Virus record (IMG/VR): IMGVR_UViG_3300028831_000281
Span: 1-56,668 of that record
Reading direction: 5' to 3' (one strand)
Origin: a virus
DNA length: 56,668 nucleotides
Shown piece by piece: positions 5,368 to 47,692 of this stretch. The first letter of the stretch is position 1, and each line of letters opens with the position of its first letter. The notes under the pieces are model-generated. The model saw only the letters and a list, made by a program, of their open reading frames with translations, ran no database searches and had not been told where the DNA came from. Made by a program: the position numbers and the translations under genes.

Positions 5368-5670
5368 GTGACCGTTCCATCGTTCGGCCCCAAGCCCACC
5401 AGCCAGGGCGTGCGCGGCTACCGAAACCTGACCGACGCCGAGGTGGAGTGGGTCAACAGCATCAAGATGCTGGAGGAGCTGGTGGCCGAACGGTGGGGCG
5501 ACGTAGCCCGACGCGAGGTCAACCAGCGCTGGATGGCCGTGGCCCGCACTCACTTCCAGGAGGGCTTCACCGCGCTGATCCGGGCCATCACCCAGCCCCA
5601 CGACCCGTTCCAGGTCCAGGCGGAAAACAACGCACAGGACTTTATCGAGGGCGCACCGCCGAGGAGCTGA
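5368..5670 (+). CDS. hypothetical protein
   Basis: ORF track. GTG 5 nt after the portal stop. 100 aa. Confidence 0.6.
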   Translation: MTVPSFGPKPTSQGVRGYRNLTDAEVEWVNSIKMLEELVAERWGDVARREVNQRWMAVARTHFQEGFTALIRAITQPHDPFQVQAENNAQDFIEGAPPRS

Positions 5671-5672
5671 CC

Positions 5673-8144
5673 ATGGAAACGATCGACGACATCACGCCGG
5701 ACGCGCGCACCCTGGAGCTGGAACGCCCGGAGGGCACCGCGCCCGTCAAGCTGGTCCTGGCCGTGGAGGGCCTGGACACGTCGGACGGCCGATTCATCAA
5801 CGTGGGCGCCCTGGACACCCGCCCCATGCCGCTCACCATCTGGGCTCAGGTCCGCTCCACCCACGGCATCGAGGGCGATGCCGCCACGTTCGTGGTGGGC
5901 TCGATCACCGAGGCCGAGCGCGTGCCGGGTCCCGAGGTGGTCCAGCGCTCCACCGGGGAGCCGTTCCCGCCGGACACCGCCGTGTGGTTGGGTCGGGGCT
6001 GGATGTACACCGACGTGCCGAGCCCCGAGTCGGGCAGCAAGCCGGCCTACACGCTGATGAAGGACGGCGCCCTGTACGGCAACAGCGTGGACCTGGTTGC
6101 CGTTGACGCCGAGTTCGTGTACGGGGAGAACGATCCGCTGGACGGGCCGCCCCGCCAGATCGTGACGCACAGCGCGTCGATCGCCTCCACCACCCTGGTG
6201 GGCATCCCCGCTTTTCAGGATGCGTTCGTGGAGGTGGACGGCGAGCCGATCACCCCGAGCACTGAGGCCCTGGCGTTGGTGGCGGCCGGCCCGGCGATCC
6301 CGTCGTGGCGTTCGGCGGAGATCGGCGACAAGTGCGGGCCGTGCCTGGCCGCGCCCGCCGAGGAGCATTTCACCCCGGAGGCTGCGGCGCACTCGGTCGC
6401 CGTGCTGCGCGAGGCGCTGGCCGATCAGGGGCTGGCCGAGCCGGAGCCGTTCGCCGACGTGCTTACGGGCGATGACCTGGAGCCGGCCGCGCTGGACTTC
6501 TCTACCAGCGGCATGGTGGCGCTCATCCCGGCGGAGCCGGGCCTGTTGGCGGTGCCGGCCGGCGACCGTCCCGACGATCTGCACCTGACCCTGGCCTACC
6601 TGGGCGAGGAGGTGACGAGTTGGCGCCCGGAGGAGATCGCCGCCGTGCACGCGGTGGCGCGCTCGGCGACCGACGCGGAGGAGCAGTGCCGGCAGGCCAC
6701 GGAACGCGCGCTGGAGGCGAACGAGGAGCCGCCCGAGTGCGACATGCTGTATGTGTCCCCGGCGCAGGAAGGCCCGCTGGGTCTCCGGGTGTTTGCCCAC
6801 GCCCTGTTCAACCCGAACGGTGACAACGGGTTCGACCCGGCCGCCGTGTACCTGTTCGACGGAAGTGGGCACTCATCCACGGTGACCGCGTTGGCCGAGC
6901 AGATCTCCAACGAGCTGGCCCGGCAGGTGGGCGCCGCGCAGTTCCCCGAGCAGCACCGGCCGTTCATCCCGCACGTCACCGCCGGATACAACCTGGACCC
7001 AAACCAGTTGAGCTACACCGGCCCGGTCACGTTCGACCGGATCCGGGTGGCGATCGGCAACCAGCGCACCGACTACCCGCTGGGCGGCGGGTCGGCGATC
7101 GTGGCCGCCGCCGCGCCGCTGCCACCCGCAGCCTGGTTCGATGACCCCAAGCTCGAGGGCCCCACCGCAGCTACGGTGACCGAGGACGGGCGCGTGTTCG
7201 GTCACCTGGCCACCTGGGGCACCTGTCACGTCACGTTCCCCGGCCAGTGCATCACCCCGCCGCGCAGCCCGTCCGGGTACGCCTACTTCCTGGTGCACTC
7301 CACCCGGGCGCTGGGCGCGAGTGGCCAGGTGGTGGAGGTGCCGGTGGGCTACGGCACCCTGTCGCGCGATTCGGCCGGTGGGCACGCCGCCGTGACCATG
7401 TCGGCGACGGAGGCCGCCCGGCACTACGACAACACGTGTACGGCCGTCTATGAGATCAACGTGGGCGAGGACGATCACGGGATCTGGTTCGCCGGGCGGC
7501 TGATGCCTGGCCTGGACGAGTTCACCGAGCACAAGGCGCGCGGTGTGGCTTTCTCCGGGGACTGGCGGCCGATCAGGGGCCGGCGTGAGCTGGTGGCCGC
7601 GCTCGGCGTGAACACCCCCGGGTTCCCGGTTCCGCGCGTGCGTGTGGTGGGCGGGCAGCCGGCCGCGCTGGTGGCCGCCGGGGTTCCGCTCGCCGAGCCG
7701 GTCAGTGTTCCGGTGCCGGGCGGGGCTGTGGCGCAGCTCGCCGCGTGGGTGGCCGAGCAGCGCGACACCGCCGAGCGGGAGCGCGTTGAATGGGCGTACG
7801 CGCTCACCAGCGCTGAGCTGACGCTGGCCCTCGAGGGTGACCATCCGTGGTTCTCCGCTACCGAAACCGCTGAGGTGCTGGAGTCGCTGGGCGCGCTGCT
7901 CGGCGAGGAATACGCCGGCAAGAAACTGCACTTGCCGCCATTCATTAAGAGAATAGAAAAGCATCTCCGAGCCAAGGGGATGAGCGAATCCCACGCCATT
8001 GCCACGGCAGTGAACGCCGCTAAGAAGATGTGTTCCACGGGAGACATCTCGTTTCCTGGCCGCCAGCAGATTAACCCAGGGAGCCGGGCAGAGGCGTGCC
8101 GTGCCGTGGCGCAATGGAAGAAAGACCGGCCCGGCGCTCGATAG
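5673..8144 (+). CDS. capsid maturation (prohead) protease with an inserted 2H phosphoesterase domain
   Basis: ATG after GAGGAG in ORF 5448..8144. Blocks EGLDTSDGRF (N-terminal) and GHLATWGTCH..HYDNT..GIWFAG (C-terminal) look like actinophage prohead proteases. LHLTLAYLG / PHVTAGY lie between them. Confidence 0.7.
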   Translation: METIDDITPDARTLELERPEGTAPVKLVLAVEGLDTSDGRFINVGALDTRPMPLTIWAQVRSTHGIEGDAATFVVGSITEAERVPGPEVVQRSTGEPFPPDTAVWLGRGWMYTDVPSPESGSKPAYTLMKDGALYGNSVDLVAVDAEFVYGENDPLDGPPRQIVTHSASIASTTLVGIPAFQDAFVEVDGEPITPSTEALALVAAGPAIPSWRSAEIGDKCGPCLAAPAEEHFTPEAAAHSVAVLREALADQGLAEPEPFADVLTGDDLEPAALDFSTSGMVALIPAEPGLLAVPAGDRPDDLHLTLAYLGEEVTSWRPEEIAAVHAVARSATDAEEQCRQATERALEANEEPPECDMLYVSPAQEGPLGLRVFAHALFNPNGDNGFDPAAVYLFDGSGHSSTVTALAEQISNELARQVGAAQFPEQHRPFIPHVTAGYNLDPNQLSYTGPVTFDRIRVAIGNQRTDYPLGGGSAIVAAAAPLPPAAWFDDPKLEGPTAATVTEDGRVFGHLATWGTCHVTFPGQCITPPRSPSGYAYFLVHSTRALGASGQVVEVPVGYGTLSRDSAGGHAAVTMSATEAARHYDNTCTAVYEINVGEDDHGIWFAGRLMPGLDEFTEHKARGVAFSGDWRPIRGRRELVAALGVNTPGFPVPRVRVVGGQPAALVAAGVPLAEPVSVPVPGGAVAQLAAWVAEQRDTAERERVEWAYALTSAELTLALEGDHPWFSATETAEVLESLGALLGEEYAGKKLHLPPFIKRIEKHLRAKGMSESHAIATAVNAAKKMCSTGDISFPGRQQINPGSRAEACRAVAQWKKDRPGAR
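6504..7082 (+). other. LigT-like 2H phosphoesterase domain (aa ~278-470 of the protease ORF)
   Basis: Two H-x-T motifs in the canonical context: MVALIP..DDLHLTLAYLGE (His codon at 6582) and RPFIPHVTAGY (His codon at 6972), then TFDRIRVAIG. Confidence 0.7.
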
Positions 8145-8157: not shown

Positions 8158-8394
8158 ATGACCACGGCGAAGATCATTCTTCGCGTCAAGGAAGGTGATG
8201 ACCCGGTCCGGCTGGAGTTCCACCCGGACTACCAGGACGGCCGAAACAAGGAATGGGCCAGCGCCACCCCCGCGCTGAGCCTGTCCATGACCGTGAAGCG
8301 CGAGGTGGCCGAGCAGTTCTCGCCTGGCACGGCCTACGTGCTCACGTTCGAGGAGGCCGACGACCAGCCGGCCAGCGCATCCGACCCGGAGTGA
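8158..8394 (+). CDS. hypothetical protein
   Basis: Internal ATG of ORF 8101..8394 with AAAGGATGG SD. 78 aa. Last + strand gene before a bidirectional hairpin. Confidence 0.6.
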   Translation: MTTAKIILRVKEGDDPVRLEFHPDYQDGRNKEWASATPALSLSMTVKREVAEQFSPGTAYVLTFEEADDQPASASDPE

Positions 8395-8398: not shown

Positions 8399-8433
8399 AG
8401 AGGGCCCGGCACCCCATCGGCGCCGGGCCCTCT
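8399..8433. terminator. bidirectional GC-rich hairpin
   Basis: 12-bp stem agagggcccggc / gccgggccctct between convergent genes ending at 8394 (+) and 8444 (-). Confidence 0.7.
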
Positions 8434-8443
8434 CGTCTGCGGT

Positions 8444-8920
8444 TCAGTGGCCGCAGTGCCCGCAGTCGCCAAGCACCGCGTTGGGCAGCTCGGCCTGGGC
8501 CACCTCATCGAGGCGGTAACGGCGGGTGAATCCCCAGGTGTTGCTGGTGAGACTGGCATTGGCGTGCGCGCCGATCTCGCCGATCGTGCCGATCTCCCGG
8601 TGGCCGTTGGTCAGGGTGAGCAGCACGGGCAGGTGCCCGTTGGCGGCTGCGTCCACCAGAATCCGGCAGGTGTGCTCATCCAGGTGCGGGTGCACGTCCT
8701 GGAGCTGGTAGGCCAGGTCAGACAGCGCCGGCCAGTACAGCTTGAGCTGGGCCCGCAGGTGGGCGTTCAGGTAGCTGCCGTTGAGGGTGCCTTCCCAGGT
8801 GACATCGGTGAGCGGGCGGCGAAGTTCGCGAGCCGGGCGCTCGGCGGGCCGGCTCAGATCGGCATCCTGTTCGGCTTCCAGGTCGTTCATGGTTCCGTCT
8901 CCGTAATGCGTCTCAGCCAT
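8444..8920 (-). CDS. hypothetical protein (accessory island)
   Basis: Internal ATG (MAETHYGDG...) of ORF 8444..8986 directly after a promoter-leader cassette. 158 aa ending CGHCGH. Confidence 0.65.
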   Translation of the reverse strand: MAETHYGDGTMNDLEAEQDADLSRPAERPARELRRPLTDVTWEGTLNGSYLNAHLRAQLKLYWPALSDLAYQLQDVHPHLDEHTCRILVDAAANGHLPVLLTLTNGHREIGTIGEIGAHANASLTSNTWGFTRRYRLDEVAQAELPNAVLGDCGHCGH

Positions 8921-8986
8921 TTCGGGTCCTTCCGGGGAGGTCGTTCCTTGTACCGATACGGTACACCCCCGAATCCCGGGGGTCAA
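8921..8986 (-). promoter_or_regulatory. promoter + conserved leader cassette
   Basis: -35 TTGACC (8986-8981), 17-nt spacer, -10 TACCGT (8963-8958), CAAGGAACGACC, GGAAGGACCC, ATG at 8920. Confidence 0.7.
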
Positions 8987-9004
8987 GTCCGGGATTCGGG
9001 GGTG
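8964..9004 (-). terminator. 16-bp hairpin whose loop carries the -35 of the next promoter
   Basis: cacccccgaatcccgg (8964-8979) pairs with ccgggattcgggggtg (8989-9004). Loop gggtcaagt holds ggtcaa. Lies 7 nt past the stop of 9011..9274. Confidence 0.6.
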
Positions 9005-9010
9005 CCGGTT

Positions 9011-9274
9011 TCAGAACTGCGGGCCGTGCTCCAGGCCGCGCAGCGACATCTCGTAGGCCGACTCTGACTCGGCCTGCCGCCGCTGAACATCTTCCACCGT
9101 GAGCGCCAGGTGGGCGGCCAGCACGCGGGCCCCGTCGATGCTGTCCGGAACGTTAGACTGGTAGACCATCTGGGTGAGCATCCACGCGAGATCGAAGTCG
9201 AGGGCGTTCAGTTCCTTGAGTGCCTGGTCGATGAGGGCCAGGTTGTCCTGGTAGGTGTTCACGTGCTCGGTCAT
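9011..9274 (-). CDS. hypothetical protein (accessory island)
   Basis: Internal ATG (MTEHVNTYQ...) of ORF 9011..9358 after a cassette. 87 aa, acidic and helical. Confidence 0.65.
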   Translation of the reverse strand: MTEHVNTYQDNLALIDQALKELNALDFDLAWMLTQMVYQSNVPDSIDGARVLAAHLALTVEDVQRRQAESESAYEMSLRGLEHGPQF

Positions 9275-9340
9275 CTGCGGGTCCTTCCCGATCGGTCGTT
9301 CCTGGAGCCTCACGGTACACCCCTGACTATCCGGGGTCAA
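9275..9340 (-). promoter_or_regulatory. promoter + conserved leader cassette
   Basis: -35 TTGACC (9340-9335), 17-nt spacer, -10 TACCGT (9317-9312), CAGGAACGACC, GGAAGGACCC, ATG 9274. Confidence 0.7.
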
Positions 9341-9358
9341 CAACACCCGGCCTGCCAC

Positions 9359-9424
9359 TTGACCCCTAATCTCAGGGGGTGTACCGTGAGCAGGACAAGG
9401 GAACGACCACCACGGAGGACCCCG
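9359..9424 (+). promoter_or_regulatory. promoter + conserved leader cassette (divergent partner of 9275..9340)
   Basis: -35 TTGACC 9359-9364, 17-nt spacer, -10 TACCGT 9382-9387, GGGAACGACC, GGAGGACCCC, ATG 9425. The two -35 boxes are 18 bp apart. Confidence 0.7.
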
Positions 9425-10933
9425 ATGAACCCCCAGGACTTCAGCGCCACCGCCGGGCCCACCAAGGTCCAGCGCCTACTGGACTCCGCCACCGAGCGCG
9501 GATTGAGCGTCACCTATGACGGCAAGCCCAACGACGACCTGACCCGCAGCTACGCCTGGACGATTAAGAGCGGCGCCGAGCACGACCGGGATGCCCTGTG
9601 GCTGTTCTGGCACCCGGGCCCTAACGGCGGCTCCCTGGCCATCGACTACTACCGTCCGGAACGCGCTGCCGGCAAGAGCAACATCGAGCGCGTCACCCGC
9701 CGGCAGGCCCACCAGCAGATGCAGTGGATGCGCGAGACGCTGGAGCGCCACCAGGAGCGCGAGGCCGCCCGCGCTGAGGTCGAGGCCCACAACAACGCCC
9801 ACCCGGATGGCCCGGGGTGCACCGTGGAGCACCCCGAACTGACCCCCGCTGGCCGGTCGCTGCCCTGTGTGCTGCGCGGACCACACGCTGTCCACCAGGA
9901 CTCCGTGACTCGCAAGTGGACAGTCGGGGTGCCGGCTCCCGGTGTGGCTCAGCAGAGCCAAGAGCGCCGTCCGGAAATGATCAAGCCGGCCGTGGTGACC
10001 AACGCCAGCGACCTATCACCCGGAATGAAGATGACACTGCTCCGAGACACGCCACACAGCCCCCGGCTGACCACCAGGACCACCGTCAACGCCCTGGAGG
10101 CGCGCGGCTTGGCCGTGAGCATGGGCGATGGTTGGTGCGCCCTGACCGACCAGGGGCGCAAGGTGCGGGCCGCGCTCGAGGGCTACGCCCGCGTGTTGGG
10201 CCCCGTGGCTCCAGACGAGCATCTTGCCGCGTGCGGATGCCCTGAGCGCACCATCCAGGAAGAGGGGCACCGGGAGGGCTGCACCCTGCACGGTGCCGAC
10301 CTGGCACGCTTGGCGCAAATCCGGGCCGACGCCGAGGCCGCTGGGAACGAAGCGCTGGCCGTACAGATCACCCGTGAGAGGATCGCCATGGCCAAGAACG
10401 CGCCGGCCAGCCCGTGGCAGTACCCGGCGAACCCGCAGGACCCGAACTGGTTGCGCGCCGACCAGGTGATCCACCGCGCGGGCGAGATCCTCACCGTGGT
10501 GGCGGTGATCATCCATCAGGGCGTGTTGCGCAGCGTGGCAGTGTCCGTGAATGGCGGCTACGGCGGGAAGCTGCGCTGGTACGGCGACTACGCCGAGCCG
10601 ACCACGGGGCCCGTGTCGATGCTGTTCGACGACGAGTGCGGCCTGCCGGCTGATGAGCGCCGGCCGTGGCCGCGCAGCCTGGTGTCCGCCCATGACACGG
10701 TCCGGCGCGTTCTGCATGAGCAGCGGCTGGACGGGTGGGCGGCCGGCAAGGTGTACGAGGACGAGTCCCAGCCCGGTTACATCGTGGTGGAGGTTCCAGC
10801 GCTCCAGAATCCCGCCCGGCACCTGGCCCTGCTGGAGCGCTACGTGCCGTACGTGTGCAATGTCCGATCCCTGGGGGACAGTGAGGGCTGGACCGAAATC
10901 GCGATCGAGCCCACCGACACCCCGGAGGACTGA
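9425..10933 (+). CDS. hypothetical protein, 502 aa (accessory island)
   Basis: Internal ATG of ORF 9110..10933 after the cassette. Segment TTVNALEARGLAVSMGDGWCALTDQGRKV looks winged-helix-like. No family recognised. Confidence 0.65.
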   Translation: MNPQDFSATAGPTKVQRLLDSATERGLSVTYDGKPNDDLTRSYAWTIKSGAEHDRDALWLFWHPGPNGGSLAIDYYRPERAAGKSNIERVTRRQAHQQMQWMRETLERHQEREAARAEVEAHNNAHPDGPGCTVEHPELTPAGRSLPCVLRGPHAVHQDSVTRKWTVGVPAPGVAQQSQERRPEMIKPAVVTNASDLSPGMKMTLLRDTPHSPRLTTRTTVNALEARGLAVSMGDGWCALTDQGRKVRAALEGYARVLGPVAPDEHLAACGCPERTIQEEGHREGCTLHGADLARLAQIRADAEAAGNEALAVQITRERIAMAKNAPASPWQYPANPQDPNWLRADQVIHRAGEILTVVAVIIHQGVLRSVAVSVNGGYGGKLRWYGDYAEPTTGPVSMLFDDECGLPADERRPWPRSLVSAHDTVRRVLHEQRLDGWAAGKVYEDESQPGYIVVEVPALQNPARHLALLERYVPYVCNVRSLGDSEGWTEIAIEPTDTPED

Positions 10934-10936
10934 CCC

Positions 10937-11230
10937 ATGAACGTACCCCCCGAGGACTGGCAGAGCTGCCGGGCCTGCCGCGCTGACATCGTGTTCGGTC
11001 GCACCAGCCGAATCAGCAAGGGCAAGCCGGTGGTGATGCCGGTGGACGTGAAACCGGCTGACAACGGCACGGTGGCCCTGTCCAAGCAGGGCGGTGTCTA
11101 CTACGCGGGGGTGGTGCGCAAGAACCAAGCCGCCGGCATGCGCGATCGGGGCGTCGGCCTGCACGTTTCGCATTTCACGACGTGTCCGCAGGGTGCCCGG
11201 TTCCGCCGGTACTACCCGGACGCCGGCTGA
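10937..11230 (+). CDS. small zinc-ribbon-like protein
   Basis: ORF track. GGAGGA SD. CRAC ... HFTTCP Cys/His pattern. Confidence 0.65.
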   Translation: MNVPPEDWQSCRACRADIVFGRTSRISKGKPVVMPVDVKPADNGTVALSKQGGVYYAGVVRKNQAAGMRDRGVGLHVSHFTTCPQGARFRRYYPDAG

Positions 11231-11487
11231 TGATCGACCCCGACTATCTGGCCGACCTGCGCCGCCGCGCCACCGCCGACGCCGAGCAGCTCACCGTGGC
11301 CGAGCGCCACGAGCTGGCCACCCTGGCTCTCGGCCTGGGAAACGCCGCCCGCGCCACCGTCCGGGGCGAGTACCTCCAGCAGGCCCTGGACCTGCTCGGC
11401 GAGGCCGCGCCCACGCTGGCGCTGGAGCTGCGCCGCGTGCTCGCCGCCGCAGCGCTCTACCAGCCGGCCCGCCGCGACATCGCCTAG
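11230..11487 (+). CDS. hypothetical protein
   Basis: Internal ATG of ORF 11182..11487 overlapping the upstream stop (TGATG). 85 aa, Ala/Leu-rich. Confidence 0.55.
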   Translation: MIDPDYLADLRRRATADAEQLTVAERHELATLALGLGNAARATVRGEYLQQALDLLGEAAPTLALELRRVLAAAALYQPARRDIA

Positions 11488-11563
11488 ATGAGTTCCCCCG
11501 GGCGAGACACCCCCCACGGTCGGGACCTATGCTGCGCGCAGCGGAGGTAAGCCACCGTCCGAC

Positions 11564-11605
11564 CCCGGCCCAGCCGAGCGCGTTGGATCACTCCCGGCCC
11601 AGCCG
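11564..11605 (+). repeat. two 13-nt direct repeats (cccggcccagccg) upstream of the capsid gene
   Basis: Copies at 11564-11576 and 11593-11605 within the 163-nt non-coding region before ATG 11651. Confidence 0.6.
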
Positions 11606-11650
11606 GTCCACCCTCCGTTACATCACTGTGACGAGAGATGAGGACCCCCC

Positions 11651-13471
11651 ATGTCGCGGACATTTGACGCCGGCATTCTGGGCCGACTCGGCGAGGCAAC
11701 CTCCGAGGAGCTGGCCGCCGCCCTGTCGGCGATCCGCACCGACTTTTCGCACTTCGCCTCCCAGCCGGCCAGCCAGGACAACCTGAGCGCCGTGACCGAG
11801 CTGGAGTCTGCCGCCCAGAGCATCAAGGCCGAGCAGGCGAGTCGGGCGCAGCAGGCTGCCGACTACTCCGCGCGGCTGTCTTCGCTGGGCGCGCTGACCG
11901 ACAAGTCGGACGACAAGCCGGCCGAGCCTGACCCGCAGGTCCAGCAGGAGCCCCTCGAGCCGGGCCAGCCGGACAAGCGCGCCGAGCCCAACCAGCCGGC
12001 CCTGCCTGAGCCGGGCGAGGGCGACGGCGACAAGCCTTCCGGTGACGGCGACGACTCGGCGGTCACCGCCGCTGGCGCACCGCGTCGGCCGCTCGGTACC
12101 GGCGGGCACAAGCCGGCCGCGCGTCGGGCCGCCGCCATCCCCCGGGTGACCGTGCAGACCTACGCCAACCACGGCGTGGCGCACAGCCCGGCCGGTGAGC
12201 CGGTCGCGATGAGCGATGTGCTGCGGGCGTTCGAGGACCGGCGCCGGCTCAACCGGGCGGGCGGGGGCGGATACGAGCGCTACCCGATCGTGACCGCCGT
12301 GACCACTTTCCCGGAGGACCGTTTCCTGGCCCGCCAGGCCGACCCGGACCGCAACGACAACGTGGTCCGCAGGGCGGTGCGCGAGGCGGCCAGCATCCAC
12401 GCCCGGGACAACCTGAACCGTGAGCTGCGCATCCGCACCGGCCGGAGCGAGGACAGCGCGCTGGTGGCTGCCGGCCTGTGCGCCCCCGTCGAAACGATCT
12501 ATGACATCGACGTGGTGGGTGATCAGGACCGGCCGATCCGGGACAGCGCGGTGGTGCGGTTCGGCGCCGAGCGCGGCGGGGTGCAGCTTCGCCCCGACAT
12601 TTCCGGTGCCGGGCAGACCTTGGCCACCGGGGTGTGGACCACCACCCAGGATGAGGCCGACCCGATCGTCCCCAAGACCTGTGTGGAGATCGACTGCCCC
12701 GGGCTGGTCACCGCCGAGGTGGAGGCCCTCTACCAGTGCATGACCTGGTCGAACATGTCCACCCGGTTCGACCCGGAGGGCATGCAGGCCAACCTGGAGG
12801 CGCAGGGTGTGGCGCACGCGCGCTTCGCCGAGAACCGCCTGTTCACCCAGATTCAGACGGCCAGCAAGGATGTCTACTCGAGCCGGGTCCTGGGTGCCAC
12901 CAGGGACATTCTGGTCACCCTCGACCAGATGACCGCCTACCTGCGCAACCGCCACCGCCTGCGCGGTGCGATGCCGCTGCGCTGGGTGGCGCCGCTGTGG
13001 GCCCGCAACCTGATGCGCGCCGACATCACCCGGCAGATGGTCGGCGACGGTCTCCAGTCGCTGGCGGTCACGGACGCCGAGCTGGAGCGCTGGCTGGCCG
13101 AGCGCAACGTCAACACCACCTGGCACCTGGACGGCACCGACCCGGCGGACATCACCGGCCCGACGCCCGACGTGGTGGTGCCGGCGCAGTTCTACGCCAA
13201 CCTGGTGGACGAGTCGGCCGTGCCGGGATTCCCGGACGCCATCTCGACCCTGCTCTACCCGGAGGGCACCTGGCTGTACCTGGACGGCGGAACCCTGGAC
13301 CTGGGCGTGGTGCGCGACTCCACCCTCAACAGCCAGAACCGGTTCCAGACCTTCTCCGAGGAGTTCGCCTTCCCGCTGTTCAAGGGCGTGGAGTCGATCC
13401 ACCTGGTGATGCAGGTGCAGCCGACCGGCCAGTCCGCAGCAACCAGGGACACCAACGCCATCGTTGACTGA
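11651..13471 (+). CDS. major capsid protein with N-terminal scaffold/delta-like region
   Basis: 606 aa. Coiled-coil plus Pro/Glu/Asp-rich first ~170 aa, then a large capsid-type body (GLCAPVE.., LDLGVVRDSTLNSQNRFQTFSEEF). No separate scaffold gene. Strong hairpin downstream. Confidence 0.65.
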   Translation: MSRTFDAGILGRLGEATSEELAAALSAIRTDFSHFASQPASQDNLSAVTELESAAQSIKAEQASRAQQAADYSARLSSLGALTDKSDDKPAEPDPQVQQEPLEPGQPDKRAEPNQPALPEPGEGDGDKPSGDGDDSAVTAAGAPRRPLGTGGHKPAARRAAAIPRVTVQTYANHGVAHSPAGEPVAMSDVLRAFEDRRRLNRAGGGGYERYPIVTAVTTFPEDRFLARQADPDRNDNVVRRAVREAASIHARDNLNRELRIRTGRSEDSALVAAGLCAPVETIYDIDVVGDQDRPIRDSAVVRFGAERGGVQLRPDISGAGQTLATGVWTTTQDEADPIVPKTCVEIDCPGLVTAEVEALYQCMTWSNMSTRFDPEGMQANLEAQGVAHARFAENRLFTQIQTASKDVYSSRVLGATRDILVTLDQMTAYLRNRHRLRGAMPLRWVAPLWARNLMRADITRQMVGDGLQSLAVTDAELERWLAERNVNTTWHLDGTDPADITGPTPDVVVPAQFYANLVDESAVPGFPDAISTLLYPEGTWLYLDGGTLDLGVVRDSTLNSQNRFQTFSEEFAFPLFKGVESIHLVMQVQPTGQSAATRDTNAIVD

Positions 13472-26993: not shown

Positions 26994-27030
26994 CGCAGGG
27001 CCCCCGGAACGTGATTCCGGGGGCCCTGCG
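26994..27030. terminator. bidirectional GC-rich hairpin
   Basis: 16-bp stem (core cagggcccccggaa / ttccgggggccctg), 5-nt loop, between convergent genes ending at 26949 (+) and 27043 (-). Confidence 0.75.
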
Positions 27031-27042: not shown

Positions 27043-27528
27043 TCATTCGCCGTAGTGGGCCATCTCCCATTCGCGGGTGCCCCAGTGGTTCTCCCCGACC
27101 GGGTCCATGCACAGGTTCAGGCTCATGCCGTGGTGGCACACCGGGTAGAGCACCTTGGCCAGCTCCGGGAAGGCTTCCCCGGAGAAGGGCGCCAGGTGGG
27201 ATTCGCTGATCGTGTGGGTGGAGCGGCGGGCGGCGATGTAGGCCAGGGCCCACCGCTGCGCGTCGGGGCCCTCGAACGTCACCGTGTAGCTGGCCGGGGT
27301 GTAGTCGCAGCCGAACACGTGGAGGGTGATCGTGTCGGTGCTCTCGGCCGGCGCCGGCATGCGGCGGGCCTGGATGTCCTGCTCGAGCAGCTCGAGCGCG
27401 CTGGCGCAGGTGCCGTCGCAGTAGCTGATGGCGCCGGGGTCGCACTGTCCGTCGCAGGCGGGGCCGATCTCCGGAATCCATGCGCATTCGCAGCCGCCGT
27501 GGCCCTGGCACCAGTACGTGGGGAGCAT
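27043..27528 (-). CDS. hypothetical Cys-rich protein
   Basis: Internal ATG (MLPTYWCQGHGGCECAW..) of ORF 27043..27675 after a cassette. 161 aa. Confidence 0.65.
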   Translation of the reverse strand: MLPTYWCQGHGGCECAWIPEIGPACDGQCDPGAISYCDGTCASALELLEQDIQARRMPAPAESTDTITLHVFGCDYTPASYTVTFEGPDAQRWALAYIAARRSTHTISESHLAPFSGEAFPELAKVLYPVCHHGMSLNLCMDPVGENHWGTREWEMAHYGE

Positions 27529-27605
27529 TTCGGGGGTCCTTCCCTGCGGGGGGTTGTTCCTGGCCTGACAAGAAGGACAGTACACCCCCCACGTACCGGG
27601 GTCAA
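27529..27605 (-). promoter_or_regulatory. promoter + conserved leader cassette
   Basis: -35 TTGACC (27605-27600), 17-nt spacer, -10 TACTGT (27582-27577), CAGGAACAACC, GGAAGGACCC, ATG 27528. Confidence 0.7.
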
Positions 27606-38735: not shown

Positions 38736-39314
38736 ATGAGCGACGAACCAGGCACCTGGACACGCGGGGGAATCCAGTGCAAAGCCAAGAGCAAGGGCAG
38801 TCAGAAGCGCTGCCGCCGGCCGGCCACGCCCGGGCACCTGGTGTGCAAGCTGCACGGGTCGGCCAGCCCACAAGCCAAGCGCCGCGTCGAACGGGACCGG
38901 CTCATCGCCGAGGTGGAGTTGGGCGCCCGCAAGGCCCTGGACAAGCTGGGCTTCGAGCCGGTCCAGGACCCGCTGACCGAGCTTCAGCGGCTCGGCGGTG
39001 AGGTGGTGGCCTGGAAGGACCTGTTGCGCAAACTGGTGGACAAGCTGCAACAGAAGTACCGGTACGAGGGTGAGCACGCCGAGCAGATCCGGGGAGAGGT
39101 GCTGCTGTTCGAGCGCGCCCTCGACCGGTGCGCCATGGTGCTGGGCCTGATCGCCCGGCTGAAGATCGATGACCGGTTGGTGGCGATCGAGGAAGCCAAG
39201 GTCACCCAGATCGTGGATGCGGTGGAGACGGCCCTGGACGCGCTGGGCCTGTCGGTGGAGCAGCAGCTCGAGGCCAAGGCTGAAGTGGCCCGGACACTTC
39301 GGGTGGTGGGTTGA
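38736..39314 (+). CDS. terminase small subunit
   Basis: ORF track. N-terminal basic Cys cluster CKAKSKGSQKRCRRPATPGHLVCKLHG typical of actinophage TerS. Directly upstream of TerL. Confidence 0.75.
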   Translation: MSDEPGTWTRGGIQCKAKSKGSQKRCRRPATPGHLVCKLHGSASPQAKRRVERDRLIAEVELGARKALDKLGFEPVQDPLTELQRLGGEVVAWKDLLRKLVDKLQQKYRYEGEHAEQIRGEVLLFERALDRCAMVLGLIARLKIDDRLVAIEEAKVTQIVDAVETALDALGLSVEQQLEAKAEVARTLRVVG

Positions 39315-40897
39315 CCAGTGTTCTGGAGCGCGCGGCCGATGCGCTCGCGGAGAAGGCCAGCCCGCCGTACCTGAAGAAGATTCGGGACTGGCGGGATTCG
39401 TCCTGTGTGGACCCGCAGCGCTACCCGTCCCACGAGATCGCGCCCAACTGGGACGGCCCCGGCACGCTGTGCCGATCGTGCGCCACCTGTCGGCCTGAGC
39501 AGCGGCTGCCCGGCGGCGACTGGGACACCTGGCTATATTGTGCCGGCAGGGGGGCCGGCAAGACACGTAGCGCCGCCGAGGTGGTCGCCGAAACCCTGGT
39601 GATGAACCGGCGCTGGCGCATCGCCGTGCTGGCCCCCACCTACGCCGATGGCCGCGACACCTGCATCGAGGGCGAGTCCGGGCTGATCTCCATCTTCGAC
39701 CGGTGGGGCTGGCGCGAGGGCCGCGAGTACGTCTGGAACCGCAGCCTGGGTGAGCTGATCGTGCGCGCCACCCGATCCCGGGTGAAGCTCTACAGCGCCG
39801 AGAAGCCGGCCCGGCTGCGCGGACCCCAGCACCACATGGCGTGGGTGGACGAGCTGGCCCAGGTGGTCAAGGACGCCCCCGACGCCTGGGACATGCTGCT
39901 GTTCGGCCTGCGCCTAGGACGCCATCCCCGGGTCATCTGCACCACCACCCCGTTGCCCGTCCAGGTGATCAAGGATCTGCTGGCGGACGAAACCTGCACC
40001 GTCACCCGGGGCACCACCGACGACAACGCCGCCAACCTGGCCCCCGTGGTGTTGCGCAAGCTGCACCGCAAGTACGACGGCACCCGGCTGGGTCGCCAGG
40101 AGCTGGGCGCCGAGCTGCTCGATGACATCCCCGGCGCGCTGTGGCGCCGCGCATGGCTGGACGACGGGCGCATCCCCACCGAGCTGGTGGCGCGCTGGCA
40201 CGAGTGGACCGCCGAGCGCACCCAGCCGGTGGCCGCCGCGATCCTCGCCGAGCTGGAGGCGCGCGGAATCGTCCTGCACCGCATCGTGGTGGCGGTGGAC
40301 CCGGCGGTCACTTCCGGGGACGGCGACGAGGAACCCGGCGCCATGGCCACCAAGAAGGGCAAGAGCCGGGCCGACGAGTCCGGCATCGTGGTGGCCGGGC
40401 GCGGCGACGACGGGCACTTCTACGTGCTGGCCGACTACACGATCCGCGACACCCCGGATGCGGTCATGGCTAAAGTGATCCAGGCGGTGGACGACTGGGG
40501 CGCCAACGGCGTGATCGTGGAGACCAACAACGGCGGCGACTACATCCCCGGCATGCTGCGGATGTCCTGCCGGATCACCGGCCACCCCTCGATCGCCATC
40601 GAGAAGGTCCACGCCAAGAAGTCGAAGCGGGTCCGCGCCGAGCCGGTCTCGGCGATCTACGGCCAGGGTCAGGCCCACCACGTAGGCACTCACCACCACC
40701 TGGAGGACCAGATTTGCATCTGGTCTGCGGAGCTTCCGGAGTCGCCGGACCGAATGGACGCCCTGGTCTACGCCATTCTGCACCTGGACGTGCTCGGCCT
40801 GGGCTCCGAGGTGATGGCACCCAGCGGGGCGCGCGGCCGGCTTCCGCGACACCAGATGCGCAGGCACGTTCCGACCGGCTCCAGGAGGTACCGGTGA
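39311..40897 (+). CDS. terminase large subunit
   Basis: ORF track (TTG). Walker A CAGRGAGKT, then VKLYSAEKPARLRGPQHHMAWVDE, and a C-terminal nuclease-like half. Confidence 0.9.
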   Translation: MTSVLERAADALAEKASPPYLKKIRDWRDSSCVDPQRYPSHEIAPNWDGPGTLCRSCATCRPEQRLPGGDWDTWLYCAGRGAGKTRSAAEVVAETLVMNRRWRIAVLAPTYADGRDTCIEGESGLISIFDRWGWREGREYVWNRSLGELIVRATRSRVKLYSAEKPARLRGPQHHMAWVDELAQVVKDAPDAWDMLLFGLRLGRHPRVICTTTPLPVQVIKDLLADETCTVTRGTTDDNAANLAPVVLRKLHRKYDGTRLGRQELGAELLDDIPGALWRRAWLDDGRIPTELVARWHEWTAERTQPVAAAILAELEARGIVLHRIVVAVDPAVTSGDGDEEPGAMATKKGKSRADESGIVVAGRGDDGHFYVLADYTIRDTPDAVMAKVIQAVDDWGANGVIVETNNGGDYIPGMLRMSCRITGHPSIAIEKVHAKKSKRVRAEPVSAIYGQGQAHHVGTHHHLEDQICIWSAELPESPDRMDALVYAILHLDVLGLGSEVMAPSGARGRLPRHQMRRHVPTGSRRYR

Positions 40898-41402: not shown

Positions 41403-41774
41403 ATGAAGCCCCCCGCCCTGGTCGAGATGAAACCGGAGACCTACAAGGCCGACGAGCTGCTGATGTTCTACGGCTTCCGCCGGGACAGCCTGCGAGACGG
41501 GACCCTGCTCACCTACGAGCACAGCCACGGCGCCGTGCCGGTGTTGGTGGTGCTGGACGTGACCGCAAACTCGGCGAGGCTGTCGCGCTCGATTCCGGGT
41601 GAGCCGTTCAAGCCGTGGTCCTGTGTGGTGTCCCCGCAGCCGTTGCGGGCTGCGCTCGAGGCGTGCTGGTTCGTCGCGATCAGCCACGGATTGACCCCCC
41701 CGACTATAGGGGGTACGCTGGTCACCGACTGGAAGGAACGTCACACCCCCGATACCCAGAAGGACACCGAGTGA
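41403..41774 (+). CDS. hypothetical protein
   Basis: Internal ATG of ORF 41352..41774 after AAGGAGG. A degenerate cassette remnant lies at 41352-41370. Confidence 0.65.
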   Translation: MKPPALVEMKPETYKADELLMFYGFRRDSLRDGTLLTYEHSHGAVPVLVVLDVTANSARLSRSIPGEPFKPWSCVVSPQPLRAALEACWFVAISHGLTPPTIGGTLVTDWKERHTPDTQKDTE

Positions 41775-42334
41775 AGCCCACCGACTTCCCCCTGCACCGC
41801 GTCACCGACCTGATCAACCAACTACACCAGGCCACCGACAACGAACTCACCGCCGCTCGCCGGCTACGCCTAGACGGCCAGCCCGGATCGCGCGAACGCC
41901 TGGAGAGTGCCCTGGCCTACTCCGGTGCCGCCCACGCGGTCAACCGCGCCTACCTGGCGATACTCGGCGACCTGGACGCCGCCGCCGCCCACGAGCACAC
42001 CATGCAAGACGCCCGCGACCGGCAGGACGCTGGCAAGGAGGACGCCGGCACCGCCATGCAGCACCCGTGGCCGATCGACGGACTGGAGCTGCTCGGCGGA
42101 ACCGAGCGTCACCCGCAGTGGGGCGTTCGCTCCAGGCTGGGCACCCGCGTCATGCTCTATCGCTCGCTTTCTGGCGGTGTCCGGATGGGGCTCCAGGTCG
42201 AGGACAAGTCCGTCACCCTGGAGGGTGAAGACTGGCAGGCCCTGAACGCCCTGGCGCAGCGCATCCTGGCCGACGTGCCGGTCCCGTGGGGTACCCGGGC
42301 GCCAGCCCCCGATGACGACGAGTTCACCGAATGA
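41771..42334 (+). CDS. hypothetical protein
   Basis: GTG inside ORF 41615..42334 with GTGA overlap. 187 aa. Confidence 0.6.
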   Translation: MKPTDFPLHRVTDLINQLHQATDNELTAARRLRLDGQPGSRERLESALAYSGAAHAVNRAYLAILGDLDAAAAHEHTMQDARDRQDAGKEDAGTAMQHPWPIDGLELLGGTERHPQWGVRSRLGTRVMLYRSLSGGVRMGLQVEDKSVTLEGEDWQALNALAQRILADVPVPWGTRAPAPDDDEFTE

Positions 42335-42939
42335 GCGCCCAAGTGGATGCCGCCGAGCTGCTCGCCGCGCTCGGCGACCTGGAGCGCACCGCCGGCAAGG
42401 ATCGCACGCTGCCCATGCTGGCCGGCGTCATGCTGCACGCCCATCCGGGTGACGGCCGGCTGTACCTGACGAGCACCAACCGGTTCGTCATGGGCCAGGC
42501 GTGGCTGCCGTGCGAGGGTGACCTGAAGGCCACTTTCCTGGCCCTGGATTCGGTCAGTGTCGTGCGAGCCCTGCTCGGCGCCGCGTTCGGCCCGGTGGAG
42601 CTGGCCCGAAACGATCAGGAGATCGTGCTGTCCGCGCGGGGTTCGGGTGAGCTGGCGCTGCCGGTCGTCGATGACCACGGTTTCCCGAACGTGGAATCGA
42701 TCATCAAGTCGGCGCCGGCCGAGGGCAACACGGACGCCACGCTGGGCGCTGACCTGGTCTCCGCGCTGGCCATGATCGCCCGGCGCCGCCGTGAGCCGCT
42801 GCGCTTCCGGTTCGGTACCGCGCTCAAGCCGTCCGTGATCGAGATCGGCCAGCAGTATCGCGCCATGATCATGCCGGTGATCGCTCCGCCGGTCGAGGAG
42901 TTCATCTGGTCCGTACCGCACACAGAAAGGACACCGTGA
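42331..42939 (+). CDS. DNA polymerase III beta sliding-clamp-like protein (short, ~2 domains)
   Basis: ORF track. TLPMLAGVMLHA..GRLYLTSTNRFVM and DHGFPNV resemble DnaN domain I and the linker. Only 202 aa. Confidence 0.55.
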   Translation: MSAQVDAAELLAALGDLERTAGKDRTLPMLAGVMLHAHPGDGRLYLTSTNRFVMGQAWLPCEGDLKATFLALDSVSVVRALLGAAFGPVELARNDQEIVLSARGSGELALPVVDDHGFPNVESIIKSAPAEGNTDATLGADLVSALAMIARRRREPLRFRFGTALKPSVIEIGQQYRAMIMPVIAPPVEEFIWSVPHTERTP

Positions 42940-43043
42940 TGGGCCGCCACCGCGCCGTCCCACCGCCCCGCTTTGCCGCCCTGCGCCGCGCTGGAGCCAC
43001 CGCGCGCCTGTTCGGCGCCGTCCTGTCCGCCATGCTGCGATGA
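42939..43043 (+). CDS. small hypothetical protein (34 aa)
   Basis: Not in the ORF track. ATG overlaps the upstream stop (GTGATG) and its stop overlaps the next ATG (ATGA). Tight coupling on both sides. Confidence 0.35.
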   Translation: MGRHRAVPPPRFAALRRAGATARLFGAVLSAMLR

Positions 43044-43540
43044 AGCCGCCAGGGCCGATCCTGGCCCGCAGCCTGTTCGCCCAGCCGGGGCACGTCGTGG
43101 AGATGGACGGCCAGTGGCGCTGGAACGGCGAGGAGTGGCTTCCGTTGCAGCCGGGTGACATCTGCCGGCACGGCCAGACCGGGGCCAGCCTGCTGTGGAC
43201 TGGCCAGGAGTGGAAGCTGCCCACCTGGTCGAAGTCCGACCGTGACGAGCTGGCCGCCGTGATCGACCCGGAGGCGTTCAGTGGCCAGGACACCGAGGAC
43301 GCCACGCACTGGGAGATCCGCCGGGCCCTGGCCCGCGAGTCGGCCCGCCGCGCCCTGGTCCACGGCTACGTGCTCTCCACCCGACTGGCCGCGCTCGAGC
43401 CGGTGGTCTACCACACCAAGGGCCTGGGCTACGAGGTGGGCGATCGGGTGGACGTGACGTGGTCCAACGGCCGGCGCACCCGGCACGAAGTGATCGAAAT
43501 CGTAGACGGTCGGCCGGTGCTGCTGGCCCTGGAACCGTGA
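43040..43540 (+). CDS. hypothetical protein
   Basis: ORF track. 166 aa. Confidence 0.65.
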   Translation: MKPPGPILARSLFAQPGHVVEMDGQWRWNGEEWLPLQPGDICRHGQTGASLLWTGQEWKLPTWSKSDRDELAAVIDPEAFSGQDTEDATHWEIRRALARESARRALVHGYVLSTRLAALEPVVYHTKGLGYEVGDRVDVTWSNGRRTRHEVIEIVDGRPVLLALEP

Positions 43541-43552
43541 GAGGGGGAAACC

Positions 43553-43729
43553 ATGGCAGAGACGGACAAGGAGAAGGCCGCCCGCGAGGCGCGTGAGGCC
43601 GCAGCCAAGACAAAGGCAAGGGGCAGCATCGTGCGCGCCACGCTGAAGGGCAACAAGACCGCAGCCAAGACCGAGACGGGCAAGGCCACCGCGAAGGTGC
43701 TGAAGTCCGCCGCGAAGAACAAGCGGTGA
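43553..43729 (+). CDS. small Lys/Ala-rich basic protein (58 aa)
   Basis: Not in the ORF track. ATG after GAGGGGGAAACC. MAETDKEKAAREAREAAAKTKARG..KSAAKNKR. Stop overlaps the next GTG. Confidence 0.55.
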   Translation: MAETDKEKAAREAREAAAKTKARGSIVRATLKGNKTAAKTETGKATAKVLKSAAKNKR

Positions 43730-44046
43730 GCGTGCGCGCCCGGCGGTCCCCGATCCATGTGGAGAAGGGCCGCACCTGGAAGGGCGAGGTGGTGTGGGTG
43801 TGGTCCTGTGACGCGCACCCACGCCACCGGGGCTACCACCACACCAACCGCTGGACCGACCAGTGGCGCCGGGCGCAGGGGTTGCCGCCGGATACGCATC
43901 CGTGGCTCCGCTGCATGGATGGCGCGGCCAGGCACTGGCACGAGCATCACGCTGTGTGTAAGTGCGCTGTGACAGTCGGCCCCGATATGTCACTCAAACC
44001 CCGGGCTGAGACCGAACCAACCCCGCAGATTGGACACGCACAGTGA
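43726..44046 (+). CDS. hypothetical His/Trp/Cys-rich protein
   Basis: ORF track (GTG, GTGA overlap). 106 aa. Confidence 0.6.
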   Translation: MSVRARRSPIHVEKGRTWKGEVVWVWSCDAHPRHRGYHHTNRWTDQWRRAQGLPPDTHPWLRCMDGAARHWHEHHAVCKCAVTVGPDMSLKPRAETEPTPQIGHAQ

Positions 44047-44360
44047 CAAACAAGACCTACGTGAAGTTCACCGAGGAGAACGACCACGAGGGCGAGACCT
44101 GGACCTTCTGGCTGCCCGTCGAAGGCAACGAACACGCCCTGGCCGCCTTCGCCGAATGGCTGGCCGATCAGGGCCCCCGGGTCGAGGATTACAACCTGGA
44201 GCTGGAGGCCCGCGAGTCGGAGGAGCGGGTCGCCGCGCTGGTCGAGCACGGCGGGTCTGGCTACATGGCCTATCACACCAAGGTGTCCGGGCTGATGTCC
44301 AGCCCACCGGACAACCCGGATCGGCTGTACAAGGGCGGCATCCGGGGACTCTTCGCATGA
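44043..44360 (+). CDS. hypothetical protein
   Basis: ORF track (GTG, GTGA overlap). 105 aa, acidic. Confidence 0.65.
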   Translation: MTNKTYVKFTEENDHEGETWTFWLPVEGNEHALAAFAEWLADQGPRVEDYNLELEARESEERVAALVEHGGSGYMAYHTKVSGLMSSPPDNPDRLYKGGIRGLFA

Positions 44361-44608
44361 CACCCGACCAGGGTCTGATGGTCCCGCCGCTGGCGCTCGA
44401 GGAGGGCGCCGAACCCGGCTTCTCCGTCTACGCCGAGATCACCACGCCCGATGGGGTGACCTTCCACGGCGGGGTGACGCTGCCGGCTGACGCCGCGTTG
44501 GGCGACATCGCGCGGGCCCTGAAGTCCGCCGCCATGGCCGCCGCAGCCTGCCACGGCGGGGTGCTGCCGGCCATGGTCTCCGACCGCATGGGCGGACCGT
44601 CCCGGTAG
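44357..44608 (+). CDS. hypothetical protein
   Basis: Internal ATG of ORF 44030..44608 with ATGA overlap. 83 aa. Confidence 0.6.
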   Translation: MTPDQGLMVPPLALEEGAEPGFSVYAEITTPDGVTFHGGVTLPADAALGDIARALKSAAMAAAACHGGVLPAMVSDRMGGPSR

Positions 44609-44611
44609 CTG

Positions 44612-44640
44612 TTGCCCCATCCGGGCGGTGGGTGTAGGGT
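44612..44640 (+). promoter_or_regulatory. orphan promoter of the cassette family (no leader, no ORF behind it)
   Basis: TTGCCC 44612-44617, 17-nt spacer ending GGGTG, TAGGGT 44635-44640. Confidence 0.5.
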
Positions 44641-44794
44641 GGGTTAAGTCCGGGGTCGCCCAACGAAAAGCCCCGAGAACCTTGACAACTACAGGCTTCC
44701 CCGATGGCCGGACGCACATGGACGCGAAAGGCCAGACGGGAGGAGGGGCGCCGGTGTTTCGTCGCACCGTGTCGGCGAAATTCCCCCGCCGGCT

Positions 44795-44819
44795 ACCCGC
44801 CCGTTCACCACGGGCGGGT
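44795..44819. terminator. bidirectional hairpin
   Basis: 9-bp stem acccgcccg / cgggcgggt, 7-nt loop. Lies downstream of both the orphan promoter (+) and the small gene 44837..44968 (-). Confidence 0.55.
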
Positions 44820-44836
44820 GCACCCCGCAAAGCTTC

Positions 44837-44968
44837 CTATCGGCACTGCCCGTCAACCGACAGGCAGCCCTGGGTGGATGCCGTGGCAGTCGGGGTGCCC
44901 CAGTTGATGGCCCCGAGGATTCCCAGGATGCCGAGCATGGCGGCGGCGATCTTGGTCTTGACCGACAT
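44837..44968 (-). CDS. small secreted/membrane peptide (43 aa)
   Basis: C-terminal part of ORF 44837..46018. ATG 6 nt after GGAG. MSVKTKIAAAMLGILGILGAINWG (signal/TM-like) then TPTATASTQGCLSVDGQCR. Confidence 0.5.
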   Translation of the reverse strand: MSVKTKIAAAMLGILGILGAINWGTPTATASTQGCLSVDGQCR

Positions 44969-45313
44969 GGTTGCTCCGTTCAGTAGTGGTGGTGTCGCGC
45001 AATGATAGCCACCTCCCAGACCTCGCCGATTCGGTACGGCGAGTCGCGCCGCTGGTATCGGCGCGTGAAGGTCCCCCGTGTGCGCCCGGCCAGTGTGGAG
45101 CAGGTCGGCGCCTTCGACTCCCCTCGAGGGCGGGGCCCGTGGGCGCGAGCCCTGCGCACCGGGGGACCACCCAAGACCCAGCACGACGCCGCATGCCACC
45201 CGCTCCGGGGTGGGCGCCGTGCGGTGGGGGCGGCCGGATGAAACGCCGGAACGGGCTGGAGGGTGACGTATCCCCCCGCCCCCACCAGGGACCACAACCG
45301 AGAGGAGGGCCCC

Positions 45314-45874: not shown

Positions 45875-46205
45875 AGACAGCACCGAGCCGACGTTCACAC
45901 TGGGCGAACCGCGCCGTATGTGGGAGTCCACCGACCCGCCGCGCATGCGCGTGTGGGTGCCGTTCCGGGGCTGTGCCACCGTGCTCGCCCTCAAGCATCT
46001 GGCCGACGAGCTGGGCATCCCGTACCAGGACTTGGGCGTGAATCACCCGCAGTCCGTCTCCTGGATCGAGCCGGCCACCCACGATGATTGCGCCGCCCGG
46101 GCTGCCCGCGAGCTGGACCGCGATCTGCGTCACGCGAAGTGGGAGCGCGACACCTACGAGCGGCTGCGCGCCAAGTTCGAGGCCGATCGGAAGGGCACCC
46201 CGTGA
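45867..46205 (+). CDS. hypothetical protein
   Basis: ORF track. 8-nt overlap with the HAD gene. 112 aa. Confidence 0.6.
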   Translation: MPEDSTEPTFTLGEPRRMWESTDPPRMRVWVPFRGCATVLALKHLADELGIPYQDLGVNHPQSVSWIEPATHDDCAARAARELDRDLRHAKWERDTYERLRAKFEADRKGTP

Positions 46206-47689: not shown

Positions 47690-47692
47690 TTG

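Follow-up and report, generated by a model that had tools for sequence, protein, structure and literature searches.

Why do five genes with promoters of their own lie between the head maturation protease gene and the major head protein gene of a phage? The question is raised by positions 8399-11650 of the IMG/VR virus record IMGVR_UViG_3300028831_000281, a stretch of 56,668 nucleotides which, in its whole length, is referred to here as the window. A first-pass annotation had proposed that the five genes (gpA to gpE, in the order of their positions) form a moron-type accessory island. Our analysis retains this proposal for gpA and gpB, which are promoter-gene-hairpin units of varying content, but not for gpC, gpD and gpE, which are conserved and constrained. 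With a probability of roughly 0.6, we read the block as three transcription units between two virion-gene operons, in which the right half is inherited and the left half is exchangeable cargo. In such an arrangement a single copy of the promoter-plus-leader cassette that is standard in this phage would head each unit, and the five genes would be transcribed apart from the portal-protease operon, which would stop at the hairpin at 8399-8433. Most likely the host polymerase, unmodified, would read them early or throughout infection, and the products of the right half would be non-virion, nucleic-acid-binding early proteins. Transcripts from the rightward promoter probably pass via a conserved 163-nt leader into the capsid gene, and gpA and gpB are probably packages that are swapped via the cassettes, in the manner of the promoter-early stem-loop (PeSL) cassettes discussed at the end of this text.

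Promoter cassettes and the ends of the transcription units

The five genes form three units, with gpA and gpB leftward and gpC-gpD-gpE rightward. These genes, their cassettes, the hairpin at 8399-8433, the flanking genes and the 18-bp spacing of two -35 boxes were all present as first described. The upstream flank is the head maturation protease gene (5673-8144; phrog_18402, E 6e-73) and the downstream flank the gene for the major head protein (11651-13471; phrog_777, E 2e-70). GC content at third codon positions (GC3) is 0.82-0.91 for all five genes, which is typical of coding sequence in a genome of 70% GC. The features of the block are as follows.

8399-8433, both strands: predicted two-way hairpin terminator, ending the portal-protease operon (+) and the gpA unit (-)
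8444-8920, minus strand: gpA, 158 amino acids (aa); single-gene unit; protein ends CGHCGH; GC3 0.82; ORFan
8921-8986, minus strand: cassette P1, with promoter 8958-8986 and leader ...CAAGGAACGACC..GGAAGGACCC..ATG; transcript start predicted near 8951
8964-9004, minus strand: perfect 16-bp hairpin just past the stop codon of gpB (inverted repeat I14, 100% complementary; -38 kcal/mol, z -5.5)
9011-9274, minus strand: gpB, 87 aa; single-gene unit; predicted helical; GC3 0.86; ORFan
9275-9340, minus strand: cassette P2, with promoter 9312-9340, then leader; start predicted near 9305
9359-9424, plus strand: cassette P3, with promoter 9359-9387 and 37-nt leader; start predicted near 9394
9425-10933, plus strand: gpC, 502 aa; first gene of the gpC-gpD-gpE unit
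10937-11230, plus strand: gpD, 97 aa; small zinc-type protein with a basic tail; conserved core of the block
11230-11487, plus strand: gpE, 85 aa; Ala-rich, apparently helical; start overlaps the gpD stop by 1 nt; ORFan
11488-11650, plus strand: capsid-gene leader, 163 nt; TANNNT box TATGCT at 11528-11533 and two CCGGCCCAGCCG copies at 11565-11576 and 11594-11605

The motif TTGACC-N17-TACCGT forms the promoters of P1 (-), P2 (-) and P3 (+) and recurs with one mismatch at 27577-27605 (-), giving four copies where 0.05 are expected. P1 and P2 share the direct repeats D1 and D5, and P3 is an inverted copy of P2 (inverted repeat I2), the -35 boxes at 9335-9340 and 9359-9364 being 18 bp apart. When the search was relaxed to TTGACN-N16-18-TANNNT, 15 sites were found in the genome, compared to 0.36 expected from Markov simulations. 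All 15 have essentially one layout, with a C-rich start and a G-rich end to the spacer, and 12 of them meet a stricter count. At 13 of the 15 sites the promoter is followed by a leader of 37-51 nt of the form (T)CAGGAAC(A/G)ACC...GGAAGGACCC...ATG or GTG, i.e., ending GGA(A/G)GGA...ATG/GTG. The copy at 34246 has a divergent leader, and that at 48512-48551 (+), with a start codon at 48549, looks leaderless. A site in the related locus L004 (7458-7492, minus strand) is alike. In these two promoters the ATG is just 6-7 nt past the -10 box, which suggests that leaderless mRNAs are made beside those with the usual leader of 37-42 nt.

Ten of the cassettes lie at 41.7-56.5 kb among small open reading frames (ORFs), the replication and recombination block at 27.6-34.2 kb has three that face left, and three are those of the island. 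P3 is the sole plus-strand copy of the class between 1 and 41.6 kb, that is, across the virion-gene stretch. The island cassettes are a subtype with the common -10 box TACCGT, and the fourth cassette of this subtype, 27577-27605 (-), drives a lone Cys-rich ORFan of 161 aa at 27043-27528 (-). The unit 27043-27605 sits where the rightward virion and lysis genes meet the leftward genes. The cassettes of the block had been taken as specific to the island. Because they are three copies of a genome-wide class of 15, they are the phage's general, host-type promoter and did not arrive together with the genes. The promoter sequence lies near the consensus for the housekeeping sigma factor, and an RNA polymerase of the phage's own was not detected, for which reasons reading of the five genes by the host polymerase is the most likely course. 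A generic promoter and terminator scan of 7.5-12.5 kb made no calls, these -10 boxes and U-less hairpins being outside its rules.

The unit ends are similarly well marked on the left. The hairpin at 8399-8433 folds with -36.6 kcal/mol on the plus strand (z -4.7) and -39.5 kcal/mol on the minus strand (z -5.2), and none of 200 shuffles was as good; the upstream operon is predicted to terminate there. Together with the near-consensus promoters, this hairpin supports the original view that the five genes stand apart from the protease operon. In the hairpin at 8964-9004 the loop and the 3' arm hold the -35 box and spacer of P1, so that it is a composite of terminator and promoter. The gene at 27043-27528 likewise has a very strong two-way hairpin at its end (26994-27030, z -8.2), and for gpA, gpB and this gene a strong hairpin lies at most about 20 nt past the stop codon. 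The rightward unit, which had been described as self-contained, differs, as the sequence past gpE (11485-11630) folds like its shuffles (z 0.11). Since no terminator follows gpE, the P3 transcript probably continues through the leader into the capsid gene.

The right and left halves of the block among relatives

We compared the block with nine related loci, on eight distinct contigs from viral and metagenomic collections; L008-L010 are copies of one phage. They fall into three groups by the identity of their capsid proteins to that of the window.

L004: capsid identity 91%; all five genes and three cassettes
L007, L008-L010 and L011: capsid identity 54-58%; a gpC-like gene (311-401 aa), gpD (57-62%) and a gpE-like gene (30-35%)
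L005, L006, L018 and L019: capsid identity 47-51% where measurable; gpD plus other small genes

All nine loci have gpD in the interval from the protease gene to the capsid gene, and gpC and gpE persist to a capsid identity of about 54%, with positional homologs of gpE at 30-35% identity in L007, L008 and L011. Each locus has exactly one plus-strand promoter before the gpD operon, with TTGAC(A/C), CCCC...GGGG and TANNNT. The ratios of non-synonymous to synonymous change (dN/dS) between the window and L004 are 0.02 for gpD and 0.05 for gpE, compared to 0.17 for gpA, 0.32 for gpC, 0.14 for the protease gene and 0.25 for the capsid gene. gpD and gpE are thus the most constrained genes measured in the region, under purifying selection stronger than that on the capsid gene. 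Because P3 and gpD are found at the same site in all loci, and because of this strong constraint, we regard the right half as an old, vertically inherited component of the clade and not as recent cargo.

The left half presents a different picture. The leftward genes of the other relatives number from 0 to 3 and are unrelated between lineages. Even between the window and L004, which are 88% identical in nucleotides across the flanks, there are four differences: L004 is without a 78-aa gene (8158-8394, plus strand) that lies between the protease gene and the terminator, its gpB is a replacement allele only 34-39% identical, it has an extra leaderless leftward gene of 87 aa, and it has an extra gene of 69 aa between P3 and gpC. 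The 78-aa gene is present in L007 (55%) although missing from the much closer L004, and its product has a weak match to the C-terminus of phrog_6978 (E 1.4e-7). For gpB and its L004 allele, dN is about equal to dS. In the divergent zone the sole blocks of homology, 8911-9064 and 9308-9428, are the cassettes, which flank the replaced and inserted genes. As the joints of exchange fall in the repeated cassettes, these probably act as recombination sites, by analogy with systems in which this is described. A comparison of gene order between related phages had been suggested as a check on the island, and its outcome is divided: the left half differs among relatives, as an island would, but the position of P3 and gpD is constant over all nine loci.

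Gene products, genome setting and alternative readings

None of the five proteins had a significant match in PADLOC, Pfam, NCBIfam or the PDB, and a defence or anti-defence role, for which these databases offer no supporting family match, is neither shown nor excluded by them. PDB sequence searches with gpA and gpB and with profiles of gpC, gpD and gpE found no match, and neither did tblastn of gpA, gpB, gpC and gpE against phage records. The earlier observation that none of the proteins carries a virion-type motif holds, as there were no structural PHROG or Pfam matches. gpA has a single homolog in 5.8 billion proteins (86% identity). The only significant PHROG match among the five was that of gpD to phrog_5984 (E 2.9e-19), with residues 7-91 aligned to profile positions 6-86 of 90. 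The invariant columns C11, C14, H79 and C83 of gpD make a CxxC...HxxxC zinc motif. Relatives of gpD were found by tblastn in 121 Gordonia and Rhodococcus phages, outside the virion genes; they belong to early operons of the right arm, close to genes for exonuclease and RecT (JuJu gene 58), and one of them makes up the N-terminal part of a protein annotated as an exonuclease (Rofo gene 48). These early or recombination-region settings, and the fusion, point to a non-virion, nucleic-acid-associated role for gpD.

The largest product, gpC, has an N-domain (~7-125), a Cys/His-rich insert, a winged-helix-like segment (~188-252), a second insert of the form CGCPE..H..GC, and a C-domain (~335-497) with the motif DPxRHLxLLxRYVPY. 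Its exact sequence is not on record in the look-up made, and 57 relatives were found among 1.84 billion representatives, 13 of them at E<1e-30. The N-domain (~100 aa) is also found alone or joined to the winged-helix-like segment, and the genomic contexts of the stand-alone proteins are short and uninformative. This segment is N-terminal in most full-length relatives (P0011-P0022) and in the middle of the protein in the window and L004, which we interpret as a domain rearrangement within one family; the two Cys/His-rich inserts are carried by some members only. A first AlphaFold model from 3 sequences was too poor for use (pLDDT, the predicted local distance difference test score, 45), and a model from 15 sequences had a mean pLDDT of 70, with 83-96 in the N- and C-domains. 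The structural comparison that had been proposed for the proteins was made with this model. No fold in the PDB or among viral structures was matched significantly by Foldseek, except that one stretch of ~95 columns matched an 88-aa protein of an Arthrobacter phage, most likely via the N-domain.

The genome itself is complete. Its contig ends are identical over 67 nt (1-67 and 56602-56668), evidence of a complete genome, either circular or terminally redundant, with a unique length of ~56.6 kb, and a gene starting at 56546 runs across the circle junction to 529. The island had no megablast match in 50,697 phage records, and the phage has no close relative among those deposited. By their matches, the capsid, portal, protease and tape-measure genes belong with siphovirus families of actinophages; the best phage matches of the capsid protein are to actinobacteriophages, at no more than ~34% identity and from about residue 164 onward. 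A scan of genome collections with the capsid had as its sole match a 2.3-kb contig binned to a Nakamurella metagenome-assembled genome (70% capsid identity), a weak hint of the host. Pfam searches of 62 ORFs found SSB, ERF, a DnaC-like loader, a methyltransferase, terminase, amidase and others, and no integrase, recombinase, repressor, partition or RNA polymerase families. Because of the lack of these families the phage is probably lytic and dependent on the host polymerase, and the superinfection immunity that had been offered as something to test, or any prophage-type role, is unlikely in this complete genome. Rfam and tRNA scans of the window found no match. Measured over the circle junction, the large terminase gene (39311-40897, plus strand) and the portal gene are ~18 kb apart, and the gap between them (41691-56668 and 1-1800) holds roughly 30 small ORFs and ten of the promoter cassettes. 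Blocks with such cassettes therefore break the run of virion genes at two places rather than one.

The first alternative to consider is that the whole block is moron-type accessory cargo in the head operon, with early or constitutive functions in host interaction, defence or anti-defence. Consistent with this are gpA and gpB, as promoter-gene-terminator units with ORFan products that vary between relatives, and a slight dip in GC to 0.65-0.66 at 8.5-9.5 kb in a genome otherwise at ~0.70. Relatives also carry mobile items at the same spot, as L009 (5092-5247) and L010 (875-1030) have an Endonuclease_7 gene directly past the protease. In addition, the head module already holds a gene of anti-defence type: the 100-aa gene at 5368-5670 (+), between the portal-MuF ORF and the protease gene, matches PF24729, the hairpin domain of Acb2/Tad1, with 44.7 bits (cutoff 27). 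Members of the Acb2/Tad1 family are cyclic-nucleotide sponges that counter CBASS and Thoeris defence. However, P3 and gpC-gpD-gpE are conserved at this site across the clade and strongly constrained, the cassettes are those of the phage itself, the search for integrase and repressor families was negative and hence there is no prophage state from which to express cargo, and none of the five proteins has a match in the databases named above. We consider the cargo explanation unlikely for the block as a whole.

Less likely again is that P3 effectively serves the capsid-to-tail operon as its promoter, with gpC, gpD and gpE taking part in head assembly as, for example, scaffold-like proteins or chaperones; the block would then be a component of the head module. 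The capsid gene needs a promoter after the upstream terminator, and P3, with no terminator past gpE, is the only recognizable one upstream. The position directly upstream of the capsid gene is also fixed in all relatives, and gpE is small, Ala-rich and very constrained. Against this, the capsid protein has its own N-terminal extension of ~185 residues, which lies within the family profile (phrog_777 covers residues 12-602), so a separate scaffold is not required. The gpD relatives of the 121 other phages are outside the virion genes, and gpC, gpD and gpE lack any structural PHROG or Pfam match. Moreover, the capsid leader has a conserved TANNNT box of its own, and in four relatives (L005, L006, L018 and L019) a terminator hairpin precedes it; no such hairpin is present in the window, L004, L007, L008 or L011.

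The capsid leader is conserved in all nine related loci (in an alignment of seven loci, plus L018 and L019), and its paired CGGCCNAGCCG sites (11565 and 11594), ~29 nt apart, are the only exact copies in the genome. RNAalifold found just two invariant hairpins of 4-5 bp and no covariation. The leader is thus not supported as a folded RNA element and, because no covariation was seen, is more likely a protein-binding or promoter element; the capsid gene may have its own non-consensus promoter there. A GGCCCAGCC sequence between the divergent promoters of L004, which resembles the leader repeat, was rejected since the other relatives do not conserve it and a sequence of this composition would be expected to contain it by chance. 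We also entertained the idea that a clade-specific capsid or late-gene switch is made up of P3, gpD as zinc protein (joined in closer relatives by gpC and gpE) and the leader with its paired sites. An early DNA- or RNA-binding protein encoded just upstream would then act on the leader and gate transcription or translation of the capsid operon. This idea seems improbable to us. A specific role of gpD at the capsid leader is weakened by the Gordonia phage JuJu, which has a gpD relative and a compact head module without a capsid leader. Finally, although long spurious ORFs are generally abundant in DNA of 70% GC, the notion that the ORFs and cassettes are chance features of such DNA is refuted by the coding pattern of GC over codon positions, dN/dS values well below 1 in four of the five genes, conservation of the genes in independent metagenomic contigs, and the 15 cassettes compared to 0.36 expected.

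Several points also weigh against our own reading of three units with an inherited right half and an exchangeable left half. The -10 box of the island cassettes, TACCGT, is further from consensus than that of most copies (TAGAGT, TAGGGT), and the assignment of the genes as early draws solely on the resemblance of their promoters to that consensus. Read-through into the capsid gene would leave the rightward unit not fully separate from head-gene transcription, and judging from the hairpin before the leader in the four relatives listed above, it is not clade-wide. The functions proposed for the proteins are predictions: the winged-helix Pfam matches of gpC are all sub-threshold, and its model met only the one Arthrobacter phage protein in the structural search. 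The probable role of the cassettes in recombination is drawn from one close pair of genomes, and the Nakamurella contig is the only pointer to a host.

Other genes of the head region were also noted. The Acb2/Tad1-like gene lies 2.7 kb upstream of the block in the same module, without its own promoter, and is kept in L004 (86%) and L018 (40%). The protease ORF (823 aa) has at residues ~297-446 a 2H-phosphoesterase-like segment with the motifs HLTLAY and HVTAGY, which are also found in L005 and L006. This segment scores 21.8 bits with LigT_PEase, below the cutoff of 23.3, and matches phrog_2659 ("RNA ligase") with E 1.5e-26. A 2H-phosphoesterase-like enzyme domain inside a head protein is unusual, and it could act on cyclic or 2'-5' nucleotides. 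The head region of L011 also carries a mobile item, an intein (PF14890) in a portal-region product (1-1497).

The block has implications for the annotation of phage genomes, as apparent foreign cargo that splits a head module can be an old, constrained operon under the phage's standard promoter, and the truly mobile part can be smaller and bounded by repeated promoter cassettes. With regard to evolution, it suggests that gene shuffling by promoter cassettes, described for T4-like phages, may occur in high-GC actinobacterial siphoviruses too. gpD and gpE, being short and highly constrained, are good targets for experiments, and gpA, gpB and the gene at 27043 are ORFans that are candidates for a part in host takeover or anti-defence. 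A candidate promoter set for a high-GC host is offered by the 15 near-identical promoter-leader units.

Comparison with known systems

A moron, in the sense of Juhala and Hendrix for lambdoid and HK97-like phages, is a gene that brings a promoter and a terminator of its own into a late operon, where it sits between other genes, and is classically expressed from the prophage, independent of late transcription. gpA (P1 and the hairpin 8399-8433) and gpB (P2 and the hairpin 8964-9004) resemble this type, as each is self-contained, variable and situated between late genes. Unlike morons, gpC-gpD-gpE are conserved and, though led by a promoter, are not followed by a terminator. There is also no sign of a lysogenic state, and the promoter belongs to the phage's own repeated class.

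PeSL cassettes are known from the hyperplastic regions of T4-like phages, where recombination between repeated promoter motifs swaps ORFan genes, even inside conserved modules (Arbiol et al. 2010, PMC2839356; Comeau et al. 2014, PMC4122927). The cassettes of the window share with them a repeated, near-consensus host promoter joined to a Shine-Dalgarno sequence and a start codon, here in the 15 copies counted above. Similarly, the motifs stand before small ORFan genes, are associated with stem-loops, and are concentrated in variable regions and at times inside core modules beside plastic genes. The replacements and indels between the window and L004 are likewise bounded by cassettes, albeit in a single pair of genomes. 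There are also differences. This is a high-GC genome of siphovirus type whereas the PeSL phages are T4-like myoviruses, and the two are unrelated in lineage and sequence; the resemblance would therefore be functional and not genealogical, an analogy rather than membership. The palindrome here is inside the promoter spacer (4-6 bp, CCCC/GGGG), and only in P1 is a full terminator hairpin joined to the -35 box; some cassette units have separate terminators further downstream. In addition, the leader is conserved too in this phage, and the gpC-gpD-gpE unit is conserved in the clade and not plastic.

Among actinophages, the Gordonia phage Vardy has a repeated intergenic 50-bp motif in five copies mid-genome, among membrane-protein genes (PMC9671010). 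Both phages have a multi-copy intergenic motif with a sigma-70-type -10 box just before gene starts, and both are lytic-type actinophages without an integrase, but the Vardy copies are not inside the head module and the sequence of the motif differs. With regard to phrog_5984, gpD shares its Cys/His residues with family members such as JuJu gene 58 and the Rofo gene 48 exonuclease N-terminus; the Gordonia and Rhodococcus members are in the early or recombination region whereas gpD is between the protease and capsid genes. The proposed capsid or late-gene switch, if true, would be unlike all three types of late control represented by lambda Q, T4 gp33/55 and Mu C. The closest known kinds to this block thus appear to be the shuffling cassettes of PeSL type and the morons, from which it differs by its high-GC actinophage genome, the palindrome in its promoter spacer and a clade-conserved operon just before the capsid gene.

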